The notes under the pieces: generated by a model
The model's database searches: none
Told to the model about the DNA's origin: nothing
Seen by the model: the letters and a program-made list of their open reading frames with translations, nothing else
From: Collinsella sp.
GTDB lineage: Bacteria > Actinomycetota > Coriobacteriia > Coriobacteriales > Coriobacteriaceae
Direction of reading: 5' to 3'
Assembly: GCA_019419625.1 (NCBI GenBank)
Contig: DXZO01000005.1
Span: 7,587 to 71,586, forward strand
DNA length: 64,000 nt
Translations under genes and position numbers: made by a program
Shown here: positions 1 through 49,931 of the stretch, piece after piece
Layout of the letters: the number at the start of each line of letters is the position of its first letter
Position numbering within the stretch: the first letter of the stretch is position 1

Positions 1-3000
1 CTACCGCATCTCCAATGCTCAGCTTATGACCATGCTGAGTTTTGACGCCAACGCTTCGGCCAAAAAGCATTCCGCCGCGGCCGAGGAGCGCCAGCAGGAG
101 TTCTCGAATGCCGTGCAGCAGTGGCACGAGTATATGATGGATAACTCGTTTAATGATGTCGACGAGGCCTTTAACGACGCGATTGACCAGATGGTCGCCG
201 ATGCGTTTGCCGAGGAGGACAAGGACGGTAAAGAGGACGAAGCCCAAGGTGGAGCTGCCCGTAAGGCTCGTCGCGCTCCTGCCGCCAGCGACGGCGGGGG
301 TGATGATGCTGGCAACGACGAGGCCGCGCAGTTTGCGGCCGAGCTCAAGGCTGCGGTCGGCGGGTCATCGGCGCTGCTAACCCGGCAGGGCGACAGCTAC
401 GGCGTCAATGTGGACAAGATGATCTTTGAGGATGCTTACGGCACCAGCGAGGATTGGTATCAGGAACTCGCGGCGGCCCAGGGCGCGAACGCTGCGGATG
501 CGGCCGCCATCAAGGAGCTCGTCGACCATGCATCACGAGCGGAGTTTATTGCCCAGCAGGCCGAGGATCTGGTGGGCCAGTCGATGGGTATCGGCCAGCT
601 CAACCAATACGGAAGCTGGAATGACGCAACCGCTGCGGCGCTCAACAAGTGTGCGGGCATTAAGGCCAGCGAGTACAACGGCCAGTCGACGAGCGGGTTT
701 AACGATTTGGGCCAGGCGCTCGGCAGCTCGCTGAGCTACAAGGCGGCTGACGACGATACCGTCAAGGGCTTTAAGGTAGCCGCGCCCGATGGCGAGCAGA
801 CGGCCTATATCGAGTCGGAGTTTATCGAGAACTCCAATAACAACAAGAACCAGGCGCTGCTGTTTAACTCGATCGCCATGCAGTGCGACATTCTGGACAA
901 CCTGTACGACAACTGGAATGTGGTCCATAGCCTCAACAACTCCAAGGTGCGCGGATGGCTCATGGCCTGGAAGCGCAACGGCGACGTGAGCGCCCATATG
1001 AAGCTCATCCGTACGATCCGTTCGCTCAAGAGCTATAAGATCGAGTGCGAGATGTTCGGACAGGTCTTTAAGACCGATGCGTGGAAGGCGGCCGGCCAGG
1101 CGTTTCCCGCGGCGACCCAGGGCATCGGCATCTTTACCGGCATTTACGGCGTGAACGATGCCAGCAAGAACTGGGAGAACGTGAACGTCCGTATGCAGAA
1201 GGTGAAGGGCGAGCGCGAGGGCTATGAGCTTCAGCATACGCGCTTGCTTGCCAAGCCCGAGAAGACCGAGGACGACTGGAAGTGCATTTACGCGCTGCGT
1301 GACGCCATGGAGAAGGCGCGTGCGTTTGAGGATCTGCTGTATCGCCAGCTCTGCCACGACAGCACCGATGTGGCAGTGGGCTCCATTATGACAATCGCCG
1401 GCGTGCTGACGGCCGGTTCGGCGGGTACCGTGGTGGGCGCTGCCTATGACGCGGCTTCGACCAGCGTAGGTTCGGAGCGCGCGATTAAGCTGACCAATGC
1501 CGAATGCGCCTACGATGTTGCCTGCGAGCAGGTGGAGCGCGCGTGTCAGAATCGTATTACGGTCAACTGGGGCGAGCTGACCGATGCCGAGGTCTACAAG
1601 GCCAACAAGGACGGCTTGATCTCGGACGAGAAGATGCAGTCGATCTTCGAGGCGCGTTATCGCAATGTGGCTGCCAAGGCAGCACCCGATCCTGCGGGCG
1701 TGGTGTACGAGGGCCTGCTGTCCAATACGGTTGAAGGCGCGACGGTTGAGCTGTGGAGCGCCGACGATGCGGCCGGTACCAATGCGGTGCGTTGGGATGC
1801 CGAGGAGTATGAGCAGGACAATCCGCTTGCGACGGGTGCGGACGGTGCGTACAACTGGAATACGCCGACCGGCTGGTATCAGGTGCGCGTGACCAAGGAC
1901 GGGTATGAGGAGGCGCGTTCGGCTTGGCTGCGCGTGCCGCCGATTCAGACTGAGGTGAACATTGGCTTGGTGTCGACGGCGGCGCCCGGGGTGGCTTCGG
2001 CCCATGCCTATACCGATTGCATCGAGGTTGAGTTTGCGCAGTATATGGATGCGAGCGACGATGCCCTGGTCGCATTGTGCGCGCAGGGCTTGGGCGACGT
2101 GACGTATACGTGGCTCGACAAGCAGGACGATCCCAATGGCAAGCCGCTGTCGCGCGTGCTGCGTATTCGCTATGCCGATGCGCGTGAGGCGGGCTCGACG
2201 GTGGCGTTTGAGCTCGACGGTGCTCGCAATTACGCCGGCACGGTCATGCCACGCTGGGCAAGTGGCGAGCTTGTCGTGGGCGTTCGTGCCGACAAGCTCA
2301 AGCTCAACGTGGAGCAGGCCGTGACCATGCTTGATGGCGGTGACTTTGAGCTGGTGGCGCACGTGACCGATAAGGCGGGCAAGCCGTTTGCGGGCGCCAA
2401 GGTTAGTGTTGGACTGGAGTCCTCGGCTATCTGCTCTGTCGATGCTACCCAGGCCGTGACGGGCGAGGACGGCGCGGCGACGTTTGTGCTGCATGGCGCT
2501 CTGCCCGGTTTGACGACGTTGACGGCGACGGTGGATGACACGGCGCTGTCCAAGCAGGTCGACGTTCGCGTGTCTGCCGAGGCAGTGCGACCGGCGCGAC
2601 CGGTGGCGACGATTGGTGCGACGACGTTTGGTGCATGGTCGCCCAAGGAGAACTACATTACGGTGCCCAAGGGCACGAAGCTGGAGCTTTCGGCCGAGGA
2701 TGGCACGACGATTTGGTACACCACCAACGACACCTGCCCCTGCCGTGACGAAGGCCGCGTAAAGTACACCGAGCCTATTGTGCTCGATAGCAATATGTAT
2801 GTGCGCATTGCGGCACAGCGCCCTGGCATGTCGTACAGCGAGTATTCCGAGCGTCTGAACATTACGATTACGGTGACCGATGAGGCGGCGCCTGAGCCGA
2901 CGCCCGATCCCAGTCTGAAGCCAGAGCCCGAGCCGACGCCTGACGGCGGCGAGCAGGGAGGCGGTACGGATGGCTCTGGTGGCGCCGGGGTCCCTGCGGG

Positions 3001-3193
3001 CAGTTCGACTTCGACGACGACCACGGTGACGACGGACAAGTCCAAGGGTAAGGGCGAGAACGGCAAGAAGTCCGGCGGCGCGGAGCTCGCCAGCACGGGT
3101 GACTCCGCCGCGATGACGGTCGCTGCCCTGGGCATCGCCGGCGCAACCGTCGCCGCTGCCGGTCTCGCCGCAACCAAGCGCCGCAAGCGCTAG
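1..3193 (+). CDS. Cell-wall-anchored surface protein, 5' end probably outside the window (beta-sandwich/Ig-like modules, Pro-rich stalk, LAxTG sorting signal)
   Basis: ORF 26..3193 stays open in-frame back to nt 2 and has no signal peptide after its first Met, so it is likely truncated by the window edge. The C-terminus has a PEPTPDPSLKPEPEPTPDGG stalk, then ELASTGDS (LAxTG sortase motif), a hydrophobic helix AAMTVAALGIAGATVAAAGLAA and a KRRKR tail. Ig-like segments are visible, e.g. VSVGLESS...TLTATVDD...VDVRVS. Confidence 0.75.
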   Translation, partial: YRISNAQLMTMLSFDANASAKKHSAAAEERQQEFSNAVQQWHEYMMDNSFNDVDEAFNDAIDQMVADAFAEEDKDGKEDEAQGGAARKARRAPAASDGGGDDAGNDEAAQFAAELKAAVGGSSALLTRQGDSYGVNVDKMIFEDAYGTSEDWYQELAAAQGANAADAAAIKELVDHASRAEFIAQQAEDLVGQSMGIGQLNQYGSWNDATAAALNKCAGIKASEYNGQSTSGFNDLGQALGSSLSYKAADDDTVKGFKVAAPDGEQTAYIESEFIENSNNNKNQALLFNSIAMQCDILDNLYDNWNVVHSLNNSKVRGWLMAWKRNGDVSAHMKLIRTIRSLKSYKIECEMFGQVFKTDAWKAAGQAFPAATQGIGIFTGIYGVNDASKNWENVNVRMQKVKGEREGYELQHTRLLAKPEKTEDDWKCIYALRDAMEKARAFEDLLYRQLCHDSTDVAVGSIMTIAGVLTAGSAGTVVGAAYDAASTSVGSERAIKLTNAECAYDVACEQVERACQNRITVNWGELTDAEVYKANKDGLISDEKMQSIFEARYRNVAAKAAPDPAGVVYEGLLSNTVEGATVELWSADDAAGTNAVRWDAEEYEQDNPLATGADGAYNWNTPTGWYQVRVTKDGYEEARSAWLRVPPIQTEVNIGLVSTAAPGVASAHAYTDCIEVEFAQYMDASDDALVALCAQGLGDVTYTWLDKQDDPNGKPLSRVLRIRYADAREAGSTVAFELDGARNYAGTVMPRWASGELVVGVRADKLKLNVEQAVTMLDGGDFELVAHVTDKAGKPFAGAKVSVGLESSAICSVDATQAVTGEDGAATFVLHGALPGLTTLTATVDDTALSKQVDVRVSAEAVRPARPVATIGATTFGAWSPKENYITVPKGTKLELSAEDGTTIWYTTNDTCPCRDEGRVKYTEPIVLDSNMYVRIAAQRPGMSYSEYSERLNITITVTDEAAPEPTPDPSLKPEPEPTPDGGEQGGGTDGSGGAGVPAGSSTSTTTTVTTDKSKGKGENGKKSGGAELASTGDSAAMTVAALGIAGATVAAAGLAATKRRKR

Positions 3194-3230
3194 GTTTTGG
3201 CGACAGCGCCTATCCTCGGCCTCAGCAAAA

Positions 3231-3447
3231 TCTCAATCTGTAACACCAAGCTGCCCAAAACGGCTCCAGGTGTTACAGATTGAGATGAACTGTTCGGCCG
3301 CCAATCTAATGTCTCGATCTGTAACACCAGGCGGGGAATTTGGTTTCTAACTGTTACAGATTGAGACAAAGCGGAGGCGGCTGGAGCAATATCTCGATCT
3401 GTAACAACTACAAGGCTCAACGGGCTCCAGGTGTTACAGATTGAGAC
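3231..3447. repeat. Array of three hairpin units built from a 16-nt repeat in alternating orientation (BIME/REP-like), copy 1 of 3
   Basis: Read directly. TCTCRATCTGTAACAC / GTGTTACAGATTGAGA arms lie at 3231-3246/3270-3285, 3312-3327/3352-3367 and 3392-3407/3432-3447. Loops are 23-24 nt and linkers 24-26 nt. The same architecture occurs at 19208-19425 and 62584-62721. Confidence 0.9.
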
Positions 3448-3464
3448 AAAACGACCAGGTAAGT

Positions 3465-3509
3465 CCCAAACCACCACAAAGGTGCCTGTCCCCATCGTGG
3501 TGGTTTGGG
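3465..3509 (+). repeat. Conserved 45-nt stem-loop module that caps the hairpin array (copy 1 of 2)
   Basis: CCCAAACCACCAC (3465-3477) pairs with GTGGTGGTTTGGG (3497-3509). The loop contains AAAGGTGCCTGTCCCC. A near-identical module in the same orientation sits at 62727-62773. Confidence 0.85.
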
Positions 3510-3516
3510 CGGCCGG

Positions 3517-3560
3517 TATAGAAAAAGTCCCCGCCGGGCGTGTGCTCGACGGGGACTTTG
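3517..3560 (-). terminator. Probable intrinsic terminator downstream of nfnB
   Basis: Stem AAAGTCCCCG (3524-3533) / CGGGGACTTT (3550-3559). On the minus strand it is followed by TTTTTCTAT, 28 nt after the stop of the 3588..4997 gene. Confidence 0.55.
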
Positions 3561-3587
3561 CCGTTTGGTGGCTAACGCTGATGGTGA

Positions 3588-4997
3588 TTACTCGCTCAGC
3601 AGGCTCTTGGTGATCGAAGCGGCGGCCTTCTTGCCGGCGCCCATCGCCAGAATGACCGTAGCGGCACCGGTGACGATGTCGCCGCCGGCCCAGATGCGGG
3701 GATCGGTGGTCTGGCCGGTCTCCTCGTCAGCGACGATGTAGCCCCACTTGTTGAGCTCCATCTTGCCGCCGATCTTCTTTGCGAAGGGGTTGGCGTTGGT
3801 GCCGATAGCCGAGATCGCGACGTCGCAGGGGATCTCCTCGATGGCGCCCTCGATGGGCACCGGACGACGGCGGCCGGACTCGTCGGGCTCGCCGAGCTCC
3901 ATCTTCTGGACCTTGACGGCGCACACGGAGCCGTCCTCGCCAGCGACAAACTCGAGCGGGGAAACGAGCGGCAGAACCTCGACGCCCTCGGCCTTAGCAT
4001 GGTGCAGCTCGGCGCGACGGCAGGGCATCTCGTCCTCGGTACGACGGTAGGCGATGATGGCGTGCTCGGCGCCCAGGCGCTTGGCGGTACGGACGGCGTC
4101 CATAGCCACGTTGCCGCCACCAAAGACAACGACGTTCTTGCCGTGCTTGGTGGGGGTGTCGTACTCGGGGAACTTGTTGGCCTTCATCAGGTTCACGCGG
4201 GTGAGGTACTCGTTCGCGAAGAAGACGTTGGGCAGGTTCTCGCCGGGGACATTGAGGAACTTGGGCAGGCCAGCGCCGGTCGCCACGTAGATGGCGTCGA
4301 AGCCCTGCTCGAACAGCTCCTCGGCCGTGGCCATGTTGCCCACGACGGAGTTGTACTCAAACTTGACGCCCATGTCCTCCAGGCCGTCAATTTCGCGCTT
4401 GACGACCGCCTTGGGCAGACGGAACTCGGGGATGCCGTAGACCAGTACGCCGCCGCCGGTAAAGAAGGCCTCAAAGACGGTGACGTCAAAGCCGTTGCGG
4501 GCGAGCTCGCCGGCGCAGGTGATGCCGGACGGGCCGGAGCCGACGACGGCGACCTTCTTGCCGTTCTTGGGGGCCATCTTGGGCGTGGAGGCGAGCTCGG
4601 GGCGGTCACCCAGGAAGCGCTCGAGCTGGCCGATGGCCACGGGCTCGGACTTCTTACCACGGATGCACTTGCCCTCGCACTGGTTCTCCTGCGGGCAGAC
4701 GCGGCCGCAGATAGCGGGAAGCATAGAGTCCTCGCGGATGGTATCGAGGGCGCCGCCGAAGTCCTTCGCGCGGATCTGCTCGATAAAGCGGGGGATGTTG
4801 ATGTTGACGGGGCAGCCCTCAACACAGAACGGCTTCTTGCAGTTGAGGCAGCGCTCGGCCTCGGCCAGCGCCATCTCCTCGGTGAAGCCCTTGTCGACGG
4901 GGCGGAAGTCGCAGGCGCGCTCGGCAGCCGGCTCCTCGTTATCGGGGGTGCGGGGCGACTTCATATCGGCAACGAAACGACCGTTAACTAGTGGCAT
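3588..4997 (-). CDS. nfnB: NADPH-dependent glutamate synthase small-chain-like oxidoreductase (NfnB-type subunit of NADH-dependent ferredoxin:NADP+ oxidoreductase)
   Basis: 469 aa. N-terminal Fe-S Cys clusters (CLNCKKPFCVEGCP, CGRVCPQENQCEGKC) and two dinucleotide folds (VAVVGSGPSG, VVVFGGGNVAMD). It overlaps the upstream NfnA-like gene by 10 nt. Confidence 0.8.
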   Translation of the reverse strand: MPLVNGRFVADMKSPRTPDNEEPAAERACDFRPVDKGFTEEMALAEAERCLNCKKPFCVEGCPVNINIPRFIEQIRAKDFGGALDTIREDSMLPAICGRVCPQENQCEGKCIRGKKSEPVAIGQLERFLGDRPELASTPKMAPKNGKKVAVVGSGPSGITCAGELARNGFDVTVFEAFFTGGGVLVYGIPEFRLPKAVVKREIDGLEDMGVKFEYNSVVGNMATAEELFEQGFDAIYVATGAGLPKFLNVPGENLPNVFFANEYLTRVNLMKANKFPEYDTPTKHGKNVVVFGGGNVAMDAVRTAKRLGAEHAIIAYRRTEDEMPCRRAELHHAKAEGVEVLPLVSPLEFVAGEDGSVCAVKVQKMELGEPDESGRRRPVPIEGAIEEIPCDVAISAIGTNANPFAKKIGGKMELNKWGYIVADEETGQTTDPRIWAGGDIVTGAATVILAMGAGKKAAASITKSLLSE

Positions 4998-19041: not shown

Positions 19042-19118
19042 TGCGGGGTGGAGCAGTCTGGTAGCTCGCCGGGCTCATAACCCGGAGGTCGTAGGTTCAA
19101 ATCCTGCCCCCGCGACCA
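19042..19118 (+). tRNA. Initiator tRNA-Met (CAT anticodon)
   Basis: 77 nt, nearly identical in layout to E. coli tRNA-fMet. The anticodon arm is CGGGCTCATAACCCG with three G-C pairs. It has a GGTTCAAATCC T-loop, a weak 1:72 pair (U:G), and an encoded CCA end. Confidence 0.92.
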
Positions 19119-41483: not shown

Positions 41484-42857
41484 ATGGACATAACCATCTC
41501 CCTTATCACCACCCTCGTTTTAACCCTCATCAACGGCTACTTCTCTATGTCCGAGATGGCGCTCACCACGGCAAAGCGCGCTGTGCTGGAGCACGAGGCC
41601 GAGGAAGGCGACAAACGCGCCGAGCGCGCCATTAAGCTGGCCGCCGATTCCGACCAGCTGCTCGCTACCATCCAGGTCGCCATCACGCTCGTGGGCTTTG
41701 CCTCGTCCGCCGTCGCCTCGACGAGCCTGTCCGACCCGCTTGCCACGTGGCTCATGAGCTTTGGCATCGCGCCGCTTTCCGCCATCGCGCGCGGCCTGGC
41801 GCCGGTCATCATTACCGTCGCCGTCGCCTTTGTGTCCATCGTGATTGGCGAGCTCGTGCCCAAGCGCATCGGCCTCGCTAACGCCGAGGGCGTATCCAAG
41901 CAGGTCGTGGGACCGCTCTCCGTGTTCCAAAAGATCGCCCGCCCGCTCGTGTGGCTGACCGGCGCTTGCTCCGATGGTCTGGCCCGCATCCTGCGCATCA
42001 AGAGCGCCGACGACCGCCAGAACGTCTCGGAGGAAGAGATCAAGTACATGGTCTCGGAGCAGGACGATTTGCTCGACGAGGAAAAGCGCATGATCCACGA
42101 GATCTTCGACCTGGGCGACACCGTTGCCCGCGAGGTCATGGTGCCGCGCGTGGACACCACCATGTGCGAGGACGACGAGACGGTCGCCGACGTGCTGTCC
42201 GCCATGCGCCAGACCGGCTTTAGCCGCATCCCCGTCTACCACGAGGATCCTGACAACGTCGTGGGCATCGCGCACATCAAGGACCTGATCCAGCCTTCGC
42301 TCGACGGCAAGGGCGACCAACCCATCGCTGACTTTTTGCGCGACGCCGCCTTTGTGCCCGACACCAAGGACATCCTGCCGCTGCTGTCCGAGATGCAGAC
42401 CTCGCACGACCAGATCGTAGTGGTCGTGGACGAGTACGGCGGCACGGCCGGCATCATCACCATCGAGGACATCGTCGAGGAGATCGTGGGCGAGATCGAG
42501 GACGAGTTCGACCCCGACAACAAGTACCTCACGCGCCTTTCGCGCCGCGAGTGGCTTGTCGATGGGCGTTTTTCGTGCGATGACGCGATTGAGCTTGGTT
42601 GGCCGCTCGAGGAAAGCGATGATTATGAGACCATCGCCGGCTGGATTTTGGAGCTTTGCGACTCGGTGCCCGACATCGGAGAGGTGTTTGAGGTTGCGGG
42701 GTACAAGTTTAAGGTGCAGTCGATGCGTGGCCAGCGCATCTCGCTCATTCGCGTGATCGCTCCGGCCGAAACCGATAAGAAGGATTCCGAGCCCTCGGCA
42801 GATAAGCCGGCGGCGTCGGACGCGGGTTCTGCGGACCCGCACGACGGCGACGAGTAG
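41484..42857 (+). CDS. CNNM/DUF21 + CBS pair + CorC_HlyC domain protein (TlyC/CorC-like putative Mg2+/Co2+ efflux)
   Basis: 457 aa. The N-terminal 4-TM DUF21 starts LINGYFSMSEMAL. It is followed by a CBS pair (VMVPRVD...) and a C-terminal transporter-associated domain (FKVQSMRGQRISLIRV). Confidence 0.85.
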   Translation: MDITISLITTLVLTLINGYFSMSEMALTTAKRAVLEHEAEEGDKRAERAIKLAADSDQLLATIQVAITLVGFASSAVASTSLSDPLATWLMSFGIAPLSAIARGLAPVIITVAVAFVSIVIGELVPKRIGLANAEGVSKQVVGPLSVFQKIARPLVWLTGACSDGLARILRIKSADDRQNVSEEEIKYMVSEQDDLLDEEKRMIHEIFDLGDTVAREVMVPRVDTTMCEDDETVADVLSAMRQTGFSRIPVYHEDPDNVVGIAHIKDLIQPSLDGKGDQPIADFLRDAAFVPDTKDILPLLSEMQTSHDQIVVVVDEYGGTAGIITIEDIVEEIVGEIEDEFDPDNKYLTRLSRREWLVDGRFSCDDAIELGWPLEESDDYETIAGWILELCDSVPDIGEVFEVAGYKFKVQSMRGQRISLIRVIAPAETDKKDSEPSADKPAASDAGSADPHDGDE

Positions 42858-43727: not shown

Positions 43728-43863
43728 GCTCACCCGCTTATCACCATCATGTACCTGCGCCTTTACCGTACGCAGATGAGCAAGACGGCAAGCGCTGTGC
43801 TGCGGGTATAATGGACAGCATTCAAACGGTGGGCGCCGAGGTGCCCGCAGGAGAGGAATGAAC

Positions 43864-44253
43864 ATGGGTAAGACTTTCAACTTTATCTCGGGTGCGCTCT
43901 TCGGTGCTGCCGCCGGCGCCATCATCGGCGTCGCCCTGGCTCCGCGCTCGGGCGCCGAGACCCGCGCCATGGCTGCCGATATCGCCAACGACGCCTGGGA
44001 TAACATGCGCGACACCTACGAGCACGGTGCCGAGGAGGCCCGCGCCGCGGTCAACGATTTTGGCCCGATGGTCGACGCCAAGACCGATGACCTGCGTGCC
44101 AAGGTTGACCTTGCCCGCGAGCGCATGGACCAGCTGCGTGAGCAGCTCAACGACGCCATCTCGGGCGGCAATGTGACGCCCGCCGCCGATGTCGTGGTCG
44201 AGAACGCCGTCGAGGCCGACGCCGAGGCCGCGGAGCCTTCGACCGAGGCATAA
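43864..44253 (+). CDS. YtxH-like small membrane-anchored protein
   Basis: MGKTFNFISGALFGAAAGAIIGVALAPRSGAETR is a typical YtxH N-terminus. The ATG at 43864 has better SD spacing than 43858. Confidence 0.7.
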   Translation: MGKTFNFISGALFGAAAGAIIGVALAPRSGAETRAMAADIANDAWDNMRDTYEHGAEEARAAVNDFGPMVDAKTDDLRAKVDLARERMDQLREQLNDAISGGNVTPAADVVVENAVEADAEAAEPSTEA

Positions 44254-45008
44254 TGCGCGCCGGGGATTTTGTCGGCGCTAAGATCTATCGCAAGCCTACC
44301 GAGGATAAGCGCACCAAAAAAGACGGCACGCCGCGCAGCCCTAAAAAGCTCGGCAAGATTCACTTTCCGGTCTTTACCCCGGGCGGTACGCGCGTGGTGG
44401 GCTTTATGGTCCGCCAGTCCGATATCGCGGGCATGATCGAGCGTCCCGATCGATTCGTAGCGCTCGACGCCATTGGTGTCTACGAGGGCGCCATTGCGGT
44501 CGATGACGTCAAGGACACGTACGATGCCGCCGCCGCCAAGCGCCTCGACATCAACCTGGACGATTGCATCATCTGGGTCGGTATGGACGTGCGCACGGAA
44601 TCGGGCGACGTCGTGGGCTATTGCTCGGACGTCGAGTTCAAGCCGCGCTCGGGCATCGTGCAGGCATTCTATGTGACCGCCGGTGCTGCTTCGAGTGTTT
44701 TGGTTGGTGACACGCAGGTGCCGCCGACGATGCTGCGCGGCTACGAGAACGGCGCGATGATTGTCTCGGACGAGGTCAAGGCGCTCGGGTATTCGGGCGG
44801 CGCGGCCGCCAAGGTTGCCGAGGCCAGTGTCGTGGTGGGCGACAAGGTCAAAAAGGGCGCCAAGGTGCTCGACGACAAGGGATCGGTCGCCGTGGACAAG
44901 GGCAGTCGCGCACTGGGCAAGCAGCTCGGCAAGACGCGCGGTATGTTCAAGGCCTTTAAGGACGAATACCAAAAGGCGAGCGGAGGCTCGTCTAAAGCTA
45001 CAAAATAG
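44253..45008 (+). CDS. Hypothetical protein, probable PRC-barrel domains
   Basis: 251 aa. Start overlaps the ytxH-like stop (TAATG). Repeated G-x-V-V-G-x-V beta-rich segments. Assignment is weak. Confidence 0.5.
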   Translation: MRAGDFVGAKIYRKPTEDKRTKKDGTPRSPKKLGKIHFPVFTPGGTRVVGFMVRQSDIAGMIERPDRFVALDAIGVYEGAIAVDDVKDTYDAAAAKRLDINLDDCIIWVGMDVRTESGDVVGYCSDVEFKPRSGIVQAFYVTAGAASSVLVGDTQVPPTMLRGYENGAMIVSDEVKALGYSGGAAAKVAEASVVVGDKVKKGAKVLDDKGSVAVDKGSRALGKQLGKTRGMFKAFKDEYQKASGGSSKATK

Positions 45009-45080: not shown

Positions 45081-46487
45081 ATGCGCCAAAACGGATCCAA
45101 CTTAAACGGGCGTTCGGGTGCGCGTCCGACGGCGCGCCGCGACCTGGGGCAGCTGCCCAGCGGTCAGCGCCGTCGCCGCCGTAAGCCCGGCGCGATGTAC
45201 CTCAACCATAGCCGCGGGTTTAGCGACCGCAGCGCGCGCATCGGCAACGGGCGCTCGCCGCGCCGACCGTCCCGTCTGCCCTATGCGCTCATTGCCGTGG
45301 GCTGTGCGCTCGTGCTGTTTATCGCTGCCGTCGTGGGCTACGTCAACCGCAGCGTGGACGTGGAACTCAACGGGCAAAAGACCGCGGTGCGCGTGGGCTC
45401 TACGCTGCAGAATCTCATCGACGACCAGGAGTTGACTGACACCTACGACGCAGGCGACCTGCTGGCCGTCGATGACAGCGTGCTCAAGCGCCATGGCGGC
45501 GAAAAGCTGTCGGTTAAGGTGGACGGCAAGCGCATAAAACAGGGCAAATGGGATAGCCGCGAACTTGAGGGTGGCGAGAAGGTGACGGTCAAGGATGGCC
45601 GTAACACCTACGAGAAGCATGAGGTTCAGGCTACGGTTATCGAGCCCAAGCTCAAGGTCGAGGGCACGGGTGCTATCGAGTATGTGCAGACGTGGGGCGT
45701 TCAGGGCCGCTCCGAGGTGTGGGTTGGTGAGCAGTCGGGCAAGACGCAGGACCGCGGCGAGGTTGTGCCCGCCACCGATTGCGTCGTTGCGTGCGCCAGC
45801 GTGGCGCCCAAGGGCAACGAAAAGTACGTGGCGCTGACGTTTGACGAGGGTCCGAGCGGCGCCACCAAACAGATCTTGCAGGTGCTCAAGGAAAAGGGCG
45901 TTACCGCGACGTTCTTCCTTTCGGGCGATGCGGCCGAGGCCTCGCCTGCCACGGCCAAGGCGATTGTCGATGCCGGGTGCGAGATCGGATCCAACAGCTA
46001 CAGCGACGATTCGCTCAAGGGTCAGGACCGTGAGACGGTACGCGAACAGATCACGAAAGGCACCGATGCGATTAAGTCGGCGACCGGCGTGAAGACGATG
46101 CTGCTGCGTGCTCCCTACGCTGCCTTTGACGAGCAAAACTGGATTGATGCGATGGACCTGGTCTCCGCCGTGGTCTCGTGGAATATTGACTCGGGCGACT
46201 GGCTGCTCAACGGTGCCGACGAGCAGGTCTCAACGGTGCTCGATTCGGTGACGCCGGGCAATATCGTGCTGCTCACCGATAGAGACGAATGCGCCGAGCA
46301 GACGCTCGAGGCGCTGCCGCAGATTATCGACGGCCTTGTCGCCGACGGCTACAAGATCGTGACGCTCAGCGACCTGGTCAAGACGGACACGTCGCTGAGC
46401 AAAAAGCTCACCTCGCTGACGAAGGTCACCATGCCCAAGGACGCCGTGTTCCCCCAACTTGCCGAGGACGATGACACCACAGAGTAG
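45081..46487 (+). CDS. Membrane-anchored polysaccharide (peptidoglycan) deacetylase with DUF348/G5-like spacer domains
   Basis: Arg-rich N-terminus, a TM helix (YALIAVGCALVLFIAAVVGYV), beta-rich G5-like region, then a NodB domain (KYVALTFDEGPS...ATFFLSG...GSNSYSD). Confidence 0.8.
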   Translation: MRQNGSNLNGRSGARPTARRDLGQLPSGQRRRRRKPGAMYLNHSRGFSDRSARIGNGRSPRRPSRLPYALIAVGCALVLFIAAVVGYVNRSVDVELNGQKTAVRVGSTLQNLIDDQELTDTYDAGDLLAVDDSVLKRHGGEKLSVKVDGKRIKQGKWDSRELEGGEKVTVKDGRNTYEKHEVQATVIEPKLKVEGTGAIEYVQTWGVQGRSEVWVGEQSGKTQDRGEVVPATDCVVACASVAPKGNEKYVALTFDEGPSGATKQILQVLKEKGVTATFFLSGDAAEASPATAKAIVDAGCEIGSNSYSDDSLKGQDRETVREQITKGTDAIKSATGVKTMLLRAPYAAFDEQNWIDAMDLVSAVVSWNIDSGDWLLNGADEQVSTVLDSVTPGNIVLLTDRDECAEQTLEALPQIIDGLVADGYKIVTLSDLVKTDTSLSKKLTSLTKVTMPKDAVFPQLAEDDDTTE

Positions 46488-46522
46488 TCATTGGGTAGTC
46501 GTTTAAGAACGTCCCCAATGGC
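46481..46522 (+). repeat. GTCCCCAA-family repeat overlapping the stop codon of the deacetylase gene
   Basis: AGAGTAGTCATTGGGTAGTCGTTTAAGAACGTCCCCAATGGC. It shares AGAGTAGTCATT and TTAAGAACGTCCCCAA with 37964-37994. Confidence 0.8.
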
Positions 46523-46535
46523 TATGTCACGGATA

Positions 46536-46700
46536 CGTCAGCGTTTGGTATGCCTGCAATGTGCAGCGCATAAATTCGATGCCGCAGGGCGATGCTGATG
46601 CTATAGTTACTGCGGTTAATGAGGGTCAAGAGAAAGGTTACAGGTGAAATCCAAACCTCGACCATACAGTCGATGACCCCATGCAGGTGCTTTTTGCGCA
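46536..46700 (+). promoter_or_regulatory. Candidate M-box (Mg2+) riboswitch-like leader
   Basis: Matches by eye to remembered conserved blocks of the B. subtilis ykoK/mgtE M-box: UUAAUGAGGGUCAAGAG (46616-46632) versus CUAAUGGGUCAACAG, ACAGGUGAAA (46640-46649) versus UAAGGUGAUU, and CCAUACAGU (46662-46670), which is identical. It lies upstream of Mg-transport-type genes. Not validated by a covariance model. Confidence 0.45.
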
Positions 46701-46760
46701 TGCACGGGGTGTAAGCGTCGAGCGGCGTGCCGCCCGCGCATGCGTATACATATCCAGAAG

Positions 46761-46795
46761 CCCCCGGACGCCGCACGCGCGGCCGCGTCCGGAGG
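46761..46795 (+). promoter_or_regulatory. Hairpin sequestering the Shine-Dalgarno sequence upstream of the MgtE_N/CBS gene
   Basis: CCCCCGGACGC (46761-46771) pairs 10/11 with GCGTCCGGAGG (46785-46795). The 3' arm contains the GGAGG SD. Confidence 0.55.
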
Positions 46796-46815
46796 AATAA
46801 TGATGGGGAGCACCA

Positions 46816-48660
46816 TTGAATTATCTGAGTGAGATGCTCAAATTGCCAGTCTTGGACGTCGACGGCGAAAAGCTCGGCGTGGTCAACGATTTTGGCATTG
46901 CAACTGGCGAAGTTTTTCCGCACGTGACGTCGCTCGCGTTCCGCGGTCCCGGCAAGACGCCGTTTATGATCAGCTGGCGCAAATGGGTCGACCGTATCGA
47001 TGAGACGGGCGTGTATCTCAACACATCTGCCACCAATATTCGCTTCTCGTACCTGCAACCGACCGAGCTGTTGCTGGCGCGCGATGTTCTCAATAAGCAG
47101 ATCGTCGACACGCAGGGCATGAAGGTCGTGCGCGTCAACGACATCAAGTTTTCCATGTCGGGCGAAAACCAGCTGCGCCTGCTGGGTGCCGAGGTCGGTG
47201 CCCGCGGTCTGCTACGCGCCATCAGCCCCGCACTCGAGCATATCGTCGAAGGCTTTATGAAGCACCTGGGCAAGCCGCTCAGCGAGGACATCATCGCTTG
47301 GTCCTACATGGACCTGCTCGACCGCTCGACTAAAAACATTCAACTCTCGGTGTCGCACAAGACGCTCGGCGAGCTGCACCCTGCCGACATCGCCGATATT
47401 ATCGAGCAGCTCGACCCGCGCCTACGTGCGCAGGTGTTTGCGCAGCTCGATACTGCCCAGGCCGCCGAGGCCATCTCGGAGTTCGATGACGACGAGCTTA
47501 TGACCGAGATGCTCGAGGGCCTGTCCGACACGGACGCATCGTCGATGCTGGCCATGATGGACCCGGACGACGCTGCCGACCTGATCGACGAGCTTGATTA
47601 CGAGAAGGCCGAGAAGCTCCTGCGCCTGATGGGCGTCAAGGAGGAGAAGGCGATTCGTAACCTGCTGGGGTATGAGGACAACACCGCCGGCCGCATCATG
47701 ACCTCGGAGTTTGTCTCCCTGCCCGCCACGGCAACGGTCGGTGACGCCATCGAGGCGATTCGCGAGCTCGACGAGGACTTCGAGAGCGTCTACTACGTCT
47801 ATACCGAGGATCCGAGCGGCATGCTGACCGGCGTGCTTTCGCTGCGCACGCTGATTGTAGCCGACCGCGACGCCACGCTGGGTCAGCTGGCCTATCGCGA
47901 CCTGGTCTATGTGTCGCCCGACGAGGACCAGGAAGACGTGACGGACGAGATGACCAAGTACGACCTGGTTGCCATCCCTGTCTGCGACGAGAACCGTCAT
48001 ATCCTTGGTATCGTGACCTTCGACGACGCCATGGACGTTATCGCCGAGGAGCATCAGGAGGACCTGCAGATCGCCGGTGTCGGCTCGGGCGATAGCGCGT
48101 CGGACGACTCGACGAACGTGCTCAGCTGGTTTGTGCATCGCCAGTACTGGGTTGTCGTGTGGGGTATTGCCTCGTGCATCATGGCGACCGTGCTGGGAAC
48201 GGCGCTCGGCTCCGCGCATCTGGTGGTGTTCCCCATGTGCGCCATGCCGCTCGTGCTGCTGGCGGCCTCGCGCATGGTGTCGTTCGTCAAGAACTACTTC
48301 CTGGAGTATGACGGTCACGACGACGAGCCCAAGCCGTATCTGGGATTCTTCTTCCAGAGCACGGGCATGGGCCTGATTCTGTCACTCGTGACCTACCTGT
48401 GCGCCCAGCTGGTGCGCACCGCTGCATTCCCCGATGCGCCCATGTTTGAGGAGCAACTCTTTACCGGGTGCTTTAATATCGCTGCCATCATTTGCTTGGT
48501 TGGCAACATGAGTGCCGTGATTTACCTGATGGTGCTGTTCTGGCGTGACGAGCATGACCTCAACACGTCGGGCACCGCCATGAACGTTATTGCCGTCATG
48601 ATCTCGTGTGTGGCGTATTGCATCGCCGCGGTGCTGCTCGCCATGTCAGTCATGGGCTAG
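46816..48660 (+). CDS. PRC-barrel + MgtE_N + CBS-pair protein with a 5-TM C-terminal domain lacking recognisable MgtE pore motifs
   Basis: N-terminus LPVLDVDGEKLGVVNDFG... and IVDTQGMKVVRVNDIKF are PRC-like. HPADIADIIEQLDP...DPDDAADLIDEL is MgtE_N-like. A CBS pair follows (IMTSEFVSL...IPVCDENRHILGIVTFDD). Five hydrophobic helices follow, without a GGNxGxQ-type motif. Start at the TTG at 46816 (GGGGAG SD) or the ATG at 46834. Confidence 0.75.
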   Translation: MNYLSEMLKLPVLDVDGEKLGVVNDFGIATGEVFPHVTSLAFRGPGKTPFMISWRKWVDRIDETGVYLNTSATNIRFSYLQPTELLLARDVLNKQIVDTQGMKVVRVNDIKFSMSGENQLRLLGAEVGARGLLRAISPALEHIVEGFMKHLGKPLSEDIIAWSYMDLLDRSTKNIQLSVSHKTLGELHPADIADIIEQLDPRLRAQVFAQLDTAQAAEAISEFDDDELMTEMLEGLSDTDASSMLAMMDPDDAADLIDELDYEKAEKLLRLMGVKEEKAIRNLLGYEDNTAGRIMTSEFVSLPATATVGDAIEAIRELDEDFESVYYVYTEDPSGMLTGVLSLRTLIVADRDATLGQLAYRDLVYVSPDEDQEDVTDEMTKYDLVAIPVCDENRHILGIVTFDDAMDVIAEEHQEDLQIAGVGSGDSASDDSTNVLSWFVHRQYWVVVWGIASCIMATVLGTALGSAHLVVFPMCAMPLVLLAASRMVSFVKNYFLEYDGHDDEPKPYLGFFFQSTGMGLILSLVTYLCAQLVRTAAFPDAPMFEEQLFTGCFNIAAIICLVGNMSAVIYLMVLFWRDEHDLNTSGTAMNVIAVMISCVAYCIAAVLLAMSVMG

Positions 48661-48668
48661 GTGGTCGC

Positions 48669-49931
48669 GTGCAAAATACCAAGCAAAAGTCGGGCACCAA
48701 GCAAAAGCTGACCATCGCGGCCATCTTTGGTGCTATGGGTCCCGGTCTGCTGGCGGCGCTTTCGGGCAATGACGCCGGCGGCATTGCAACGTATTCCAGC
48801 GCGGGCGCCAGCTATGGCTATAAGATGCTCTGGATGCTTCCCGTCATGACTGTGCTGCTCATCGTGACGCAGGAGACTGCGGCGCGCTGCGGCTGCGTCA
48901 CGGGCAAGGGCCTGGCATCGCTCATTCGCGAGCGCTTTGGCGTGCGCAAGAGTGTACTTGCTATGGCGGCGCTGTTGATCGCCAACACGGCTGTGACCAT
49001 TTCGGAGTTTGCGGGTATTGCGAGCGGCCTTGCCCTCTTTGGCGTGCCGGCGAGCATCTCGGTGCCGTTGGTGGCGCTGCTGGTGTGGATGCTTACCATG
49101 TCGGGGAGTTTCCAGCGCATCGAGAAGATTCTGCTGCTGGTGAGCTGCGTGTTCGTGACCTACATCGTCGCCGCGTTTATGGCTGGCCCCAACTGGGGTG
49201 AGGTCGCGGTCGACCTGGTCGTGCCTAACATTCAAAATGACCCCAGCTACGTGTCGCTCGTGGTCGCAACGATCGGTACCACCATCGCGCCGTGGATGAT
49301 TTTCTTGGCGCAGAACAACGTGGTCGATAAGAACGCGGGCGAGGACGACATCGTGCTGCAGCGTATTGATACCGTGAGCGGCTCGCTTGCCGCCGATGTT
49401 ATTGCCGGCTTTATTATCATCACGACCGGCACGGTGTTGTTCCCGGCGGGTATTCAGATTAGCGATGCTGCCGATGCTGCCCGCGCGCTGGAGCCTATTG
49501 CGGGTCAGTGGTCTACGGTACTGTTTGCCTCGGGCCTGGTCGCGGCGAGTTTCTTGGCTGCCTGCGTGCTGCCGGGCGTTACGTCGAGCGCTATCTGCGA
49601 GGCATTTGGCTGGGAGCGCGGTGCCGACCGCAGCTGGGACGAGGCCCCGGTCTATCGCGGCATCATTACGGCCATCATCGGTATCTCTGCCGTGCTGGTG
49701 CTTATGCCCGGCGTCGATCTGTTCCAGATTATGATGACCTCGCAGGTCATCAATGGCGTGCTACTGCCCGTGGTTCTGGTGTTCCAGGTGGTTATCGCCG
49801 CCGACCGTCACATTATGGGCGCCAACCGCAACGGCCGCGTATGGAACGTGCTCACGTGGGCGACTATCGGCGTGATTACGGTGCTCACGGTCGTCATGTT
49901 TGTCCTGCAGGCGATGGGCTACAGCGCTTAA
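48669..49931 (+). CDS. NRAMP/SLC11-family transporter with NRMT-type (putative Mg2+) binding-site substitutions
   Basis: TM1 motif NDAGG (DAGG at 48771-48782) in place of DPGN. TM6 motif TTIAPW (APW at 49287-49295) in place of xxMPH. About 11 TM helices. Start at the GTG at 48669 (AGGTGG SD), 8 nt after the upstream stop; the ATG at 48606 is the alternative. Confidence 0.8.
   Translation: MQNTKQKSGTKQKLTIAAIFGAMGPGLLAALSGNDAGGIATYSSAGASYGYKMLWMLPVMTVLLIVTQETAARCGCVTGKGLASLIRERFGVRKSVLAMAALLIANTAVTISEFAGIASGLALFGVPASISVPLVALLVWMLTMSGSFQRIEKILLLVSCVFVTYIVAAFMAGPNWGEVAVDLVVPNIQNDPSYVSLVVATIGTTIAPWMIFLAQNNVVDKNAGEDDIVLQRIDTVSGSLAADVIAGFIIITTGTVLFPAGIQISDAADAARALEPIAGQWSTVLFASGLVAASFLAACVLPGVTSSAICEAFGWERGADRSWDEAPVYRGIITAIIGISAVLVLMPGVDLFQIMMTSQVINGVLLPVVLVFQVVIAADRHIMGANRNGRVWNVLTWATIGVITVLTVVMFVLQAMGYSA

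Follow-up and report, generated by a model that had tools for sequence, protein, structure and literature searches.

Organization of the Locus

The window analyzed here is the whole of a 64,000-nucleotide stretch from a Collinsella sp. genome (GenBank assembly GCA_019419625.1, contig DXZO01000005.1, positions 7,587 to 71,586 of the forward strand) with a G+C content of about 60-64%. It contains a two-gene unit coding for a 614-amino acid protein with MgtE-like cytosolic domains and, directly downstream, an NRAMP-related Mg2+ transporter (NRMT). The first gene is referred to as the sensor gene, and the leader in front of it carries a short upstream open reading frame (uORF). A locus from an uncultured Collinsella sp. 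(L004) is essentially identical to the window, and Collinsella aerofaciens isolates show 98% identity. The features of the unit are collected in Table 1.

Table 1. Features of the sensor-NRMT unit and its leader, numbered from the first nucleotide of the window
Feature	Position	Strand	Basis
Extended -10-like element TGCTATAGT, putative operon promoter	46599..46607	+	Conserved in leaders
Shine-Dalgarno (SD)-like GAGAAAGG of leader uORF	46630..46637	+	5-8 nt upstream of uORF start in all 17 divergent leaders
Leader uORF, GTG to TGA, proline-codon peptide MKSKPRPYSR	46644..46676	+	Conserved frame
Anti-SD segment GGTGCTTTTT, complementary to the ribosome-binding site (RBS) of the sensor gene	46686..46695	+	Duplex energies
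Ribosome-binding region GGGGAGCACC of sensor gene	46805..46814	+	Conserved block, pairing partner of anti-SD segment
Sensor gene, PRC-PRC-MgtE_N-CBS-CBS plus degenerate five-helix MgtE domain	46816..48660	+	TTG start, 614 amino acids, stop TAG 48658-48660
Two N-terminal PRC-barrel-like β-domains, amino acids 1-80 and about 84-125	46816..47190	+	PF05239, AlphaFold2 (AF2)
MgtE_N domain, amino acids 187-289, carrying Mg4/Mg6/Mg7 residues D251, D255 and E218	47374..47682	+	PF03448, E value 2.5e-24
CBS pair, amino acids 291-420, ending in acidic connecting helix; D383, D404, D407, E415, D416	47686..48075	+	PF00571
Five-helix membrane domain without pore residues, amino acids 443-614	48142..48657	+	hhalign, AF2, Foldseek
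SD-like AGGTGG of NRMT gene, overlapping the sensor stop codon	48659..48664	+	Sequence reading
NRMT gene, NRAMP-related Mg2+ transporter, 420 amino acids from GTG	48669..49931	+	PF01566, E value 5.5e-88

The reading frame with its PRC, MgtE_N and paired CBS domains and five C-terminal helices is present as the original prediction, made from the letters of the window, had described it, and was seen by Pfam, hydropathy and AF2 analysis. The start codon is supported by the N-terminal sequence MNYLSEML, which is kept among homologues to as low as 67% identity. The PRC profile matches amino acids 2-61 when the whole protein is scanned against Pfam (E value of 9.4e-8), and a separate scan of the N terminus gives PF05239 in two stretches (E value of 4e-9), with the β-strands of the AF2 model lying at amino acids 11-68 and 84-124. 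The PF03448 profile is covered in full, and PF00571 is matched in two stretches (E value of 7.7e-18). The protein shares 38% identity with the MgtE cytosolic domain structure 2oux and also aligns with 2yvy. The mgtE profile TIGR00400 is matched over positions 19-322 of 450, corresponding to the cytosolic part and the first transmembrane (TM) helix, and scores 218.4 bits, below the cutoff of 232.75. Five long C-terminal helices are given by both hydropathy and AF2.

The tight coupling to an NRMT-type NRAMP that had been proposed is borne out, as an in-frame GTG lies 8 nt past the sensor stop codon and the protein read from it covers the Nramp profile PF01566 in full. This protein contains GNDAGG in TM1 and GTTIAPW in TM6 and matches the Eggerthella lenta NRMT structure (EleNRMT, Protein Data Bank (PDB) code 7qia) with an E value of 4.5e-149. 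Residues D35, G38, E113, T204, A207, W209 and Q359 correspond to EleNRMT D55, G58, E133, T224, A227, W229 and Q379, for which roles in the Mg2+-type site have been given (PMC8806188), and all seven are identical. The NRMT signature is thus complete, comprising the Asp and Gly of helix 1 (DAGG), the Glu of helix 3, the Thr and Ala of helix 6 with Trp replacing His, and the Gln of helix 10. EleNRMT alone transports Mg2+ and Mn2+ without H+ coupling (Ramanadane et al. 2022, PMC8806188), and from this close homology the window NRMT is expected to import Mg2+ and Mn2+ in the same H+-uncoupled manner. The sensor and NRMT genes are co-transcribed and translationally coupled.

The Membrane Domain Is a Diverged, Pore-less MgtE Domain

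The five C-terminal helices were originally taken for a membrane domain foreign to MgtE, joined to its cytosolic part in a chimera, and this view has to be revised. The absence of a conventional match is real, with the MgtE TM profile PF01769 found neither in a Pfam scan of the whole protein nor with the C-terminal 199 amino acids separately at E<=10, and with no match for the TM domain alone in a phmmer search of PDB sequences. The homology emerged only from profile-profile and structure comparison and not from single-sequence searches. Aligned by hhalign with the TM domains of PRC-MgtE channel proteins, the window-type family gives a probability of 97.2% with the linker included, and of 94.5% (E value of 7.5e-8, 160 collinear columns) for the helices only, compared with 1.6-3% for reversed-sequence controls. 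The full-length AF2 model (pLDDT 73.7) aligns over 434-456 columns with full-length MgtE structures and over about 230 columns with entries that hold only the MgtE cytosolic part. A model of the TM domain only (pLDDT 91, pTM 0.84) has MgtE TM structures as its six best PDB matches in Foldseek (4u9l, 4u9n, 2zy9, 5x9h), which align over about 180 columns at TM-scores of 0.51-0.59; the matches after these drop to about 0.27. Together these comparisons identify the membrane domain as a diverged MgtE TM domain rather than a foreign one.

The N domain, CBS pair, connecting helix and five-helix fold are collinear with Thermus thermophilus MgtE (2yvx, 2zy9, 5x9h, 4u9l), from which the window protein differs by its extra N-terminal PRC barrels, by lacking a PF01769 match and by the loss of the pore Asp and the TM2 motif. 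The claim that the MgtE pore signatures are missing was correct. The equivalent of the MgtE pore residue D432 is V594, and among 61 window-type family members, which served for all conservation counts, this position is Met, Val or Leu in 60 and Thr in one and is never acidic. The Gly/Asn motif of TM2, GGNxGxQ in MgtE, is replaced by AASRMVSF within the TM2 sequence AMPLVLLAASRMVSF. Averaged over alignment columns, conservation stands at 0.74-0.79 for the cytosolic domains and at 0.47 for the TM domain, as expected for a retained sensor on a relaxed membrane anchor. The 614-amino acid protein is an MgtE paralogue without a pore and with PRC barrels at its N terminus.

A charge swap occurs in TM2 at sensor residues 485-486 (48268-48273), the position of the canonical Gly/Asn motif. 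Residue 486 is Asp in 32 of the 61 relatives, often as part of a DD or ED pair; in another 23, the window protein with its Ser-Arg among them, it is Arg. This swap could mark a contact with the NRMT or a residual ion site.

The Cytosolic Mg2+ Sites Are Retained

The Mg2+ sites of T. thermophilus MgtE (TtMgtE), as assigned by Maruyama et al. 2018 (PMC5882242), were mapped onto the window protein with the alignment register checked on five Ile residues labeled in the same paper. All eight mapped positions of sites Mg2 to Mg7 are acidic in the window protein (E415, D416, D251, D404, D383, D407, D255 and E218), and they are largely conserved in the family. Four of them, the equivalents of TtMgtE E258, D259, D91 and D247, are invariant in 61/61 homologues, the invariance extending over the Mg2, Mg3 and Mg4 ligands in the CBS pair. 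Asp or Glu is found at the equivalent of D250 in all 61, at that of D95 in 53 of 61 and at that of E59 in 47 of 61. The residues of the cytosolic Mg2+ sensor are kept and those of the pore are lost.

Association with NRMT Genes and Classes of Partner Protein

The pairing was presented in the original prediction as undescribed, but Shin et al. 2014 had reported genes for the MgtE cytoplasmic domain beside NrmT genes. In their discovery of NrmT, most members of the group were found to adjoin a gene with homology to MgtE's N-terminal cytoplasmic domain, a role in feedback regulation or as a chaperone was speculated, and the gene was not required for NrmT transport (PMC4072509). The window locus has the same arrangement, with an MgtE-cytoplasmic-domain gene immediately upstream of an NRMT-type Nramp gene in an operon, and feedback regulation of the transporter is the proposed role in both systems. 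The partners described there are small and soluble and in Clostridium acetobutylicum are split between two genes, whereas the window partner has 614 amino acids, two PRC barrels and five TM helices. Many of those loci also lie behind M-box riboswitches, whereas the window has no M-box and instead a leader-peptide element. The window protein is a membrane-anchored variant of the "MgtE-like fragment" of Shin et al. 2014. A literature search gave no paper combining MgtE with PRC-barrel and CBS domains, and neither the EleNRMT paper (PMC8806188) nor Cellier's SLC11 analysis discusses a partner for NRMT. As far as we found, the pairing has been known since 2014, and no description exists of the pore-less form with five helices, of the PRC barrels, of the partners in their graded series or of the MgtA fusion set out below.

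Relatives were gathered by an exhaustive search of 1.84 billion representative proteins. The window-type class consists of proteins of about 600 amino acids without PF01769. Conserved synteny with NRMT genes, named in the original prediction as the test of the pairing, was found, with an NRMT-type Nramp gene (GNDAGG or DAGG in TM1) directly downstream in 79 of 83 window-type loci from genomes and metagenomes; three of the other four end at contig ends, and the gap in the last (L081) is only apparent. The TM6 motif GTTIAPW is matched in loci from Collinsella, Enorma, Slackia and other Coriobacteriales, and as a search pattern it gave no match in TM6 of the Olsenella and Atopobium loci. The junction between the two genes measures -4 to +15 nt in Collinsella, Enorma, Olsenella, Atopobium, Slackia, termite-gut and other Coriobacteriales loci. 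As this tight junction persists while the flanking genes differ, the pair is regarded as a conserved unit. A profile search for window-type proteins beyond Coriobacteria returned matches only from Coriobacteriia, and the five-helix form seems to be confined to Coriobacteriaceae, Atopobiaceae and related Coriobacteriales.

The partner is not always a five-helix protein. In the Slackia locus, related to that of EleNRMT, it has 449 amino acids with a single C-terminal helix, unlike the five helices of Collinsella, and its stop codon overlaps the NRMT start. Many relatives of about 415 amino acids are soluble. In a metagenome scan seeded with the non-window partner classes, an Nramp gene lies directly downstream of the soluble partners (no TM helix) in 45 of 48 assessable loci and of the one-helix partners in 10 of 10, as it does at the window-type locus L163. 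The soluble PRC-MgtE_N-CBS partners of about 415 amino acids are most probably of the same class as the fragments of Shin et al. 2014. Every paired Nramp bears NRMT-type motifs (NDAxG and GTTI[TA]P[WY]), and canonical DPGN or MPH is present in none.

PRC-MgtE_N-CBS proteins with a genuine PF01769 domain also exist (P0148, P0166, P0175). Window-type genes almost always adjoin NRMT genes, as do those of the one-helix and soluble partners, whereas five-helix PRC-MgtE proteins with a canonical-like TM2 pore motif stand alone, an adjacent Nramp being found for 0 of 10; L098, which has PF01769, also has none. The PF01769 score is 35-40 bits (above the cutoff) in the three stand-alone proteins that were scanned and a borderline 26.5-27.5 in a class termed D2, and there is no match in the window type. 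D2 is a second, independent-looking type of degenerate MgtE TM domain with the TM2 motif P-x-x-x-R-x-x-x-D-x-x-x-W, and its members are L086, L087, P0153, P0162, P0163, P0219, P0221 and P0256. One of two D2-type loci (L087) has an Nramp gene directly downstream.

A further arrangement is seen in P0138 (1314 amino acids), in which the PRC-MgtE_N-CBS module, 48% identical to amino acids 1-422 of the window protein, is fused N-terminally to a Mg2+-translocating P-type ATPase of the MgtA type (TIGR01524, 1120 bits against a cutoff of 611). This fusion suggests a portable sensor, one that can serve several kinds of Mg2+ importer.

These classes bear on whether the 614-amino acid protein is itself still a channel or transporter, with a remodeled pore and perhaps another selectivity, providing a second uptake route that is merely co-expressed with the NRMT. 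Models of high confidence retain the five-helix MgtE fold, some TM residues are conserved, and the acidic TM2 pair (DD or ED) carried by many relatives outside Collinsella could form a different ion site. The window protein, however, has Ser-Arg at this position, the D432 equivalent is not acidic in any homologue and the TM2 motif is gone, and TM conservation is far below that of the cytosolic part. One- or no-helix partners occupy orthologous positions beside the NRMT gene, so that the shared function of the partners does not need a pore, and the proteins with a canonical-like pore motif are the ones that lack a neighboring Nramp. We consider a channel function of its own improbable.

Some apparent fusions of sensor and transporter were encountered. 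The metagenomic proteins P0013, P0025 and P0028 join the sensor to Nramp, RND or MATE domains. P0013 (967 amino acids) was rejected as a natural sensor-NRMT fusion, being a deletion chimera without TM4-TM5 joined into an upstream frame of the NRMT gene, and P0025 and P0028 were rejected as apparent assembly chimeras with unrelated extra domains. An 891-amino acid fusion in L125 and L128 is a frame artefact; direct translation gives 450-amino acid one-helix proteins followed by a separate Nramp gene.

A Conserved Leader Peptide Precedes the Operon

Among Collinsella and Enorma species, one block of the 328-nt sensor-gene leader, the uORF, hardly varies, whereas its surroundings are not conserved. 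The TGCTATAGT element, with one variable base, is almost invariant in the Collinsella and Enorma leaders, and the intergenic sequence flanking it is not conserved. A consensus promoter scan made no call at this element, as there is no -35 match, and a scan with σ70 and terminator consensus around the operon gave nothing useful. The exact pattern of the uORF core occurs at 66 Collinsella and Enorma loci, each time upstream of the sensor gene, and is unique within the window. Diverged copies were found by nhmmer in Olsenella, Atopobium, L163 and L084, the peptide being MKPRPHSR in most Atopobiaceae (Olsenella and Atopobium) loci. At L084 the sensor gene (1907-3739) is followed by a 5-formyltetrahydrofolate cyclo-ligase gene, and its leader retains the uORF as MKQKPRPHSL.

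The SD, start, frame and stop are kept in 17 of 17 distinct versions of the uORF. The K-P-R-P core never changes, and variation in the Pro codons is confined to the third, synonymous, position. RNAalifold on the conserved core showed almost no covariation, by which the core was recognized as coding. An M-box or other known riboswitch upstream was considered and rejected, as Rfam matched the leader neither in a scan of the whole window at the gathering threshold nor, within 46400-46900, at E<=10.

The anti-SD segment begins 4-12 nt past the uORF stop, and a GGAGCAC block directly 5' of the sensor start codon is kept in most aligned leaders. Pairing between the two was assessed by duplex energies because a MAFFT alignment of the anti-SD and SD segments set the helices out of register. 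The best pairing of the 26 nt after the uORF stop with the RBS was compared with that of random 26-mers at the same locus, giving a mean of -19.8 kcal/mol against -10.6 kcal/mol, and 12 of 16 loci fall in the <=5% tail. Compensatory changes in the pairing are visible between lineages.

The arrangement resembles Salmonella mgtL, where mgtA expression is tied to the speed of translation by alternating Pro codons (PMC6460261). As in mgtL and mgtP, the leader of a Mg2+ importer holds a short ORF whose Pro codons alternate, putative alternative RNA pairings lie beside it, and M-x-P-x-P is common to MgtL and the Atopobiaceae peptide. Beyond this pattern no sequence homology exists, and the present peptides have 8-11 residues rather than 17 and belong to the phylum Actinomycetota. 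The element after the uORF looks like an SD-sequestering helix, which implies translational control, whereas that of mgtL is a Rho-dependent transcription attenuator. The uORF and anti-SD segment are likely to form a second layer of control that sets translation of the operon. By analogy with mgtL/mgtCBR, the dwell time of the ribosome at the end of the uORF would open the SD-sequestering helix and in this way set operon translation, and the leader would presumably respond to Mg2+.

Leaders differ in further details. The window lineage and L064 have a GC-rich hairpin (46761-46797) inserted before the RBS, a TTG sensor start where other species have ATG, and a 10-codon ORF (ATG at 46800 to TGA at 46832) with a strong GGAGGA SD that overlaps the sensor start in another frame. 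Between the uORF and the -10-like element, the leaders of L058, L059, L062, L063 and L001 have a hairpin with a U-run after it (in L058 at about 4800-4870). This structure, absent from the window, could be a 5' attenuator, a stabilizer or the terminator of the upstream gene.

Proposed Function of the Sensor Protein

The best-supported reading is the one first proposed, that an MgtE-derived sensor regulates the NRMT, and we consider it probable that the 614-amino acid protein is a Mg2+-sensing regulatory subunit acting as a membrane-anchored feedback sensor. When cytosolic Mg2+ is high, Mg2+ would bind to the acidic sites that lie on the connecting helix and between the N and CBS domains, and the sensor, probably dimeric, would close up as in MgtE. 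The closed state would be passed on to the neighboring NRMT and reduce import; at low Mg2+ the sensor would relax and leave the NRMT free to import. In this manner the sensor may limit an otherwise uncoupled, potential-driven influx of Mg2+ through the NRMT. The degenerate TM domain would serve as an anchor that keeps the sensor at the membrane and may offer a docking or contact surface. As one-helix and soluble partners fill the same genomic position, the essential contact with the NRMT is more likely to be made by the cytosolic module. We infer both the physical interaction with the NRMT and the direction of regulation. Because EleNRMT transports alone and is not H+-coupled, transport can do without a partner, and a regulator restricting uptake is physiologically sensible.

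The partner might serve the NRMT in another way, as a metal chaperone or buffer at its exit or as an assembly or stability factor, or might be a sensor that signals elsewhere. A chaperone was raised by Shin et al. 2014, whose Acidobacterium capsulatum pair transports Mn2+ rather than Mg2+ (PMC4072509), and PRC barrels are generic interaction domains; P0134, the L084 protein, has no adjacent Nramp yet retains the leader uORF. Against these roles, the retained residues are exactly those that drive the Mg2+-dependent closure of MgtE, and the same module is attached in cis to real MgtE pores and to an MgtA-type pump, which is the behavior of a gating or regulatory domain. EleNRMT also folds and transports without any partner. 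We regard this group of explanations as unlikely.

That the protein is a decaying MgtE remnant without current function, beside the NRMT gene by inheritance only, would agree with the loss of the canonical TM signatures and the low TM conservation, but we give this very little credence. The ORF is unbroken in every complete locus examined from several Coriobacteriia families, and a single 90%-identity cluster of sensor relatives counts 20,892 members. Neither a dN/dS close to 1 nor frequent frameshifting among isolates is seen. Many residues of the strongly conserved cytosolic domains are invariant, the tight junction and leader are conserved, and the pair stays together across different gene neighborhoods.

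Several observations weigh against the regulatory function or the details proposed for it. Co-expression of the A. capsulatum partner with its transporter gave no effect (PMC4072509). The D2-type locus L086 has no adjacent Nramp gene, and neither has P0134, the most divergent window-type member (41% identity). The equivalent of TtMgtE D226 in the Mg5 site, Asp (D383) in the window protein, is Asn in 40 of 61 relatives. The TM domain is predicted to fold with high confidence, and residues W445, W449, P478, L481, A484, N493, E497 and R577 within it are conserved, so that a residual membrane function is possible. In the leader, the window's own anti-SD duplex reaches only -14.0 kcal/mol, marginally better than the controls (control fraction of 0.09), and the window lineage carries extra hairpins. 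Given the weaker duplex, the extra GC-rich hairpins, the TTG start and the second small overlapping ORF, the details of the leader may differ in this lineage.

A wider interpretation is offered only tentatively. It holds that a former Mg2+ channel has been turned into an NRMT-gating subunit, that the five-, one- and no-helix partners are successive stages of reduction, that the cytosolic module is a portable sensor and that the leader with its KPRP peptide is an mgtL-like translational Mg2+ switch. The corresponding evolutionary argument is that versions with a pore-type motif occur alone and pore-less versions with NRMT, and that MgtA, too, occurs with this module fused to it. Should the partner indeed be a regulator, it would be a clean case of a channel made into a regulatory subunit, or "pseudo-channel." The leader peptide would be a further addition, a Mg2+-related element of translational control in Actinomycetota. 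NRMTs import Mg2+ without H+ coupling and lack their own sensor, and what the neighboring MgtE-like gene does has been a question since 2014. The present locus comes from an abundant human gut genus, its NRMT is closely related to the only NRMT with a solved structure, and a membrane-anchored partner should be easier to co-purify.

Neighboring Genes

A CNNM/CorC-type protein (CNNM, CBS pair and CorC_HlyC domains), likely a member of this Mg2+/Co2+ efflux family, is encoded at 41484-42857 (+), about 4 kb upstream of the pair. The gene is kept nearby in Collinsella and Enorma and lies on the other side of the pair in Atopobium. Between it and the pair, 43858-45008 (+) codes for a YtxH-like small protein followed, with an ATGA overlap, by a 251-amino acid protein with a weak PRC-barrel match (E value of 0.01), and Collinsella and Enorma keep both genes upstream of the pair. 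A single tRNA gene at 19042-19115 (+) is the only Rfam match at the gathering threshold in the 64-kb window.

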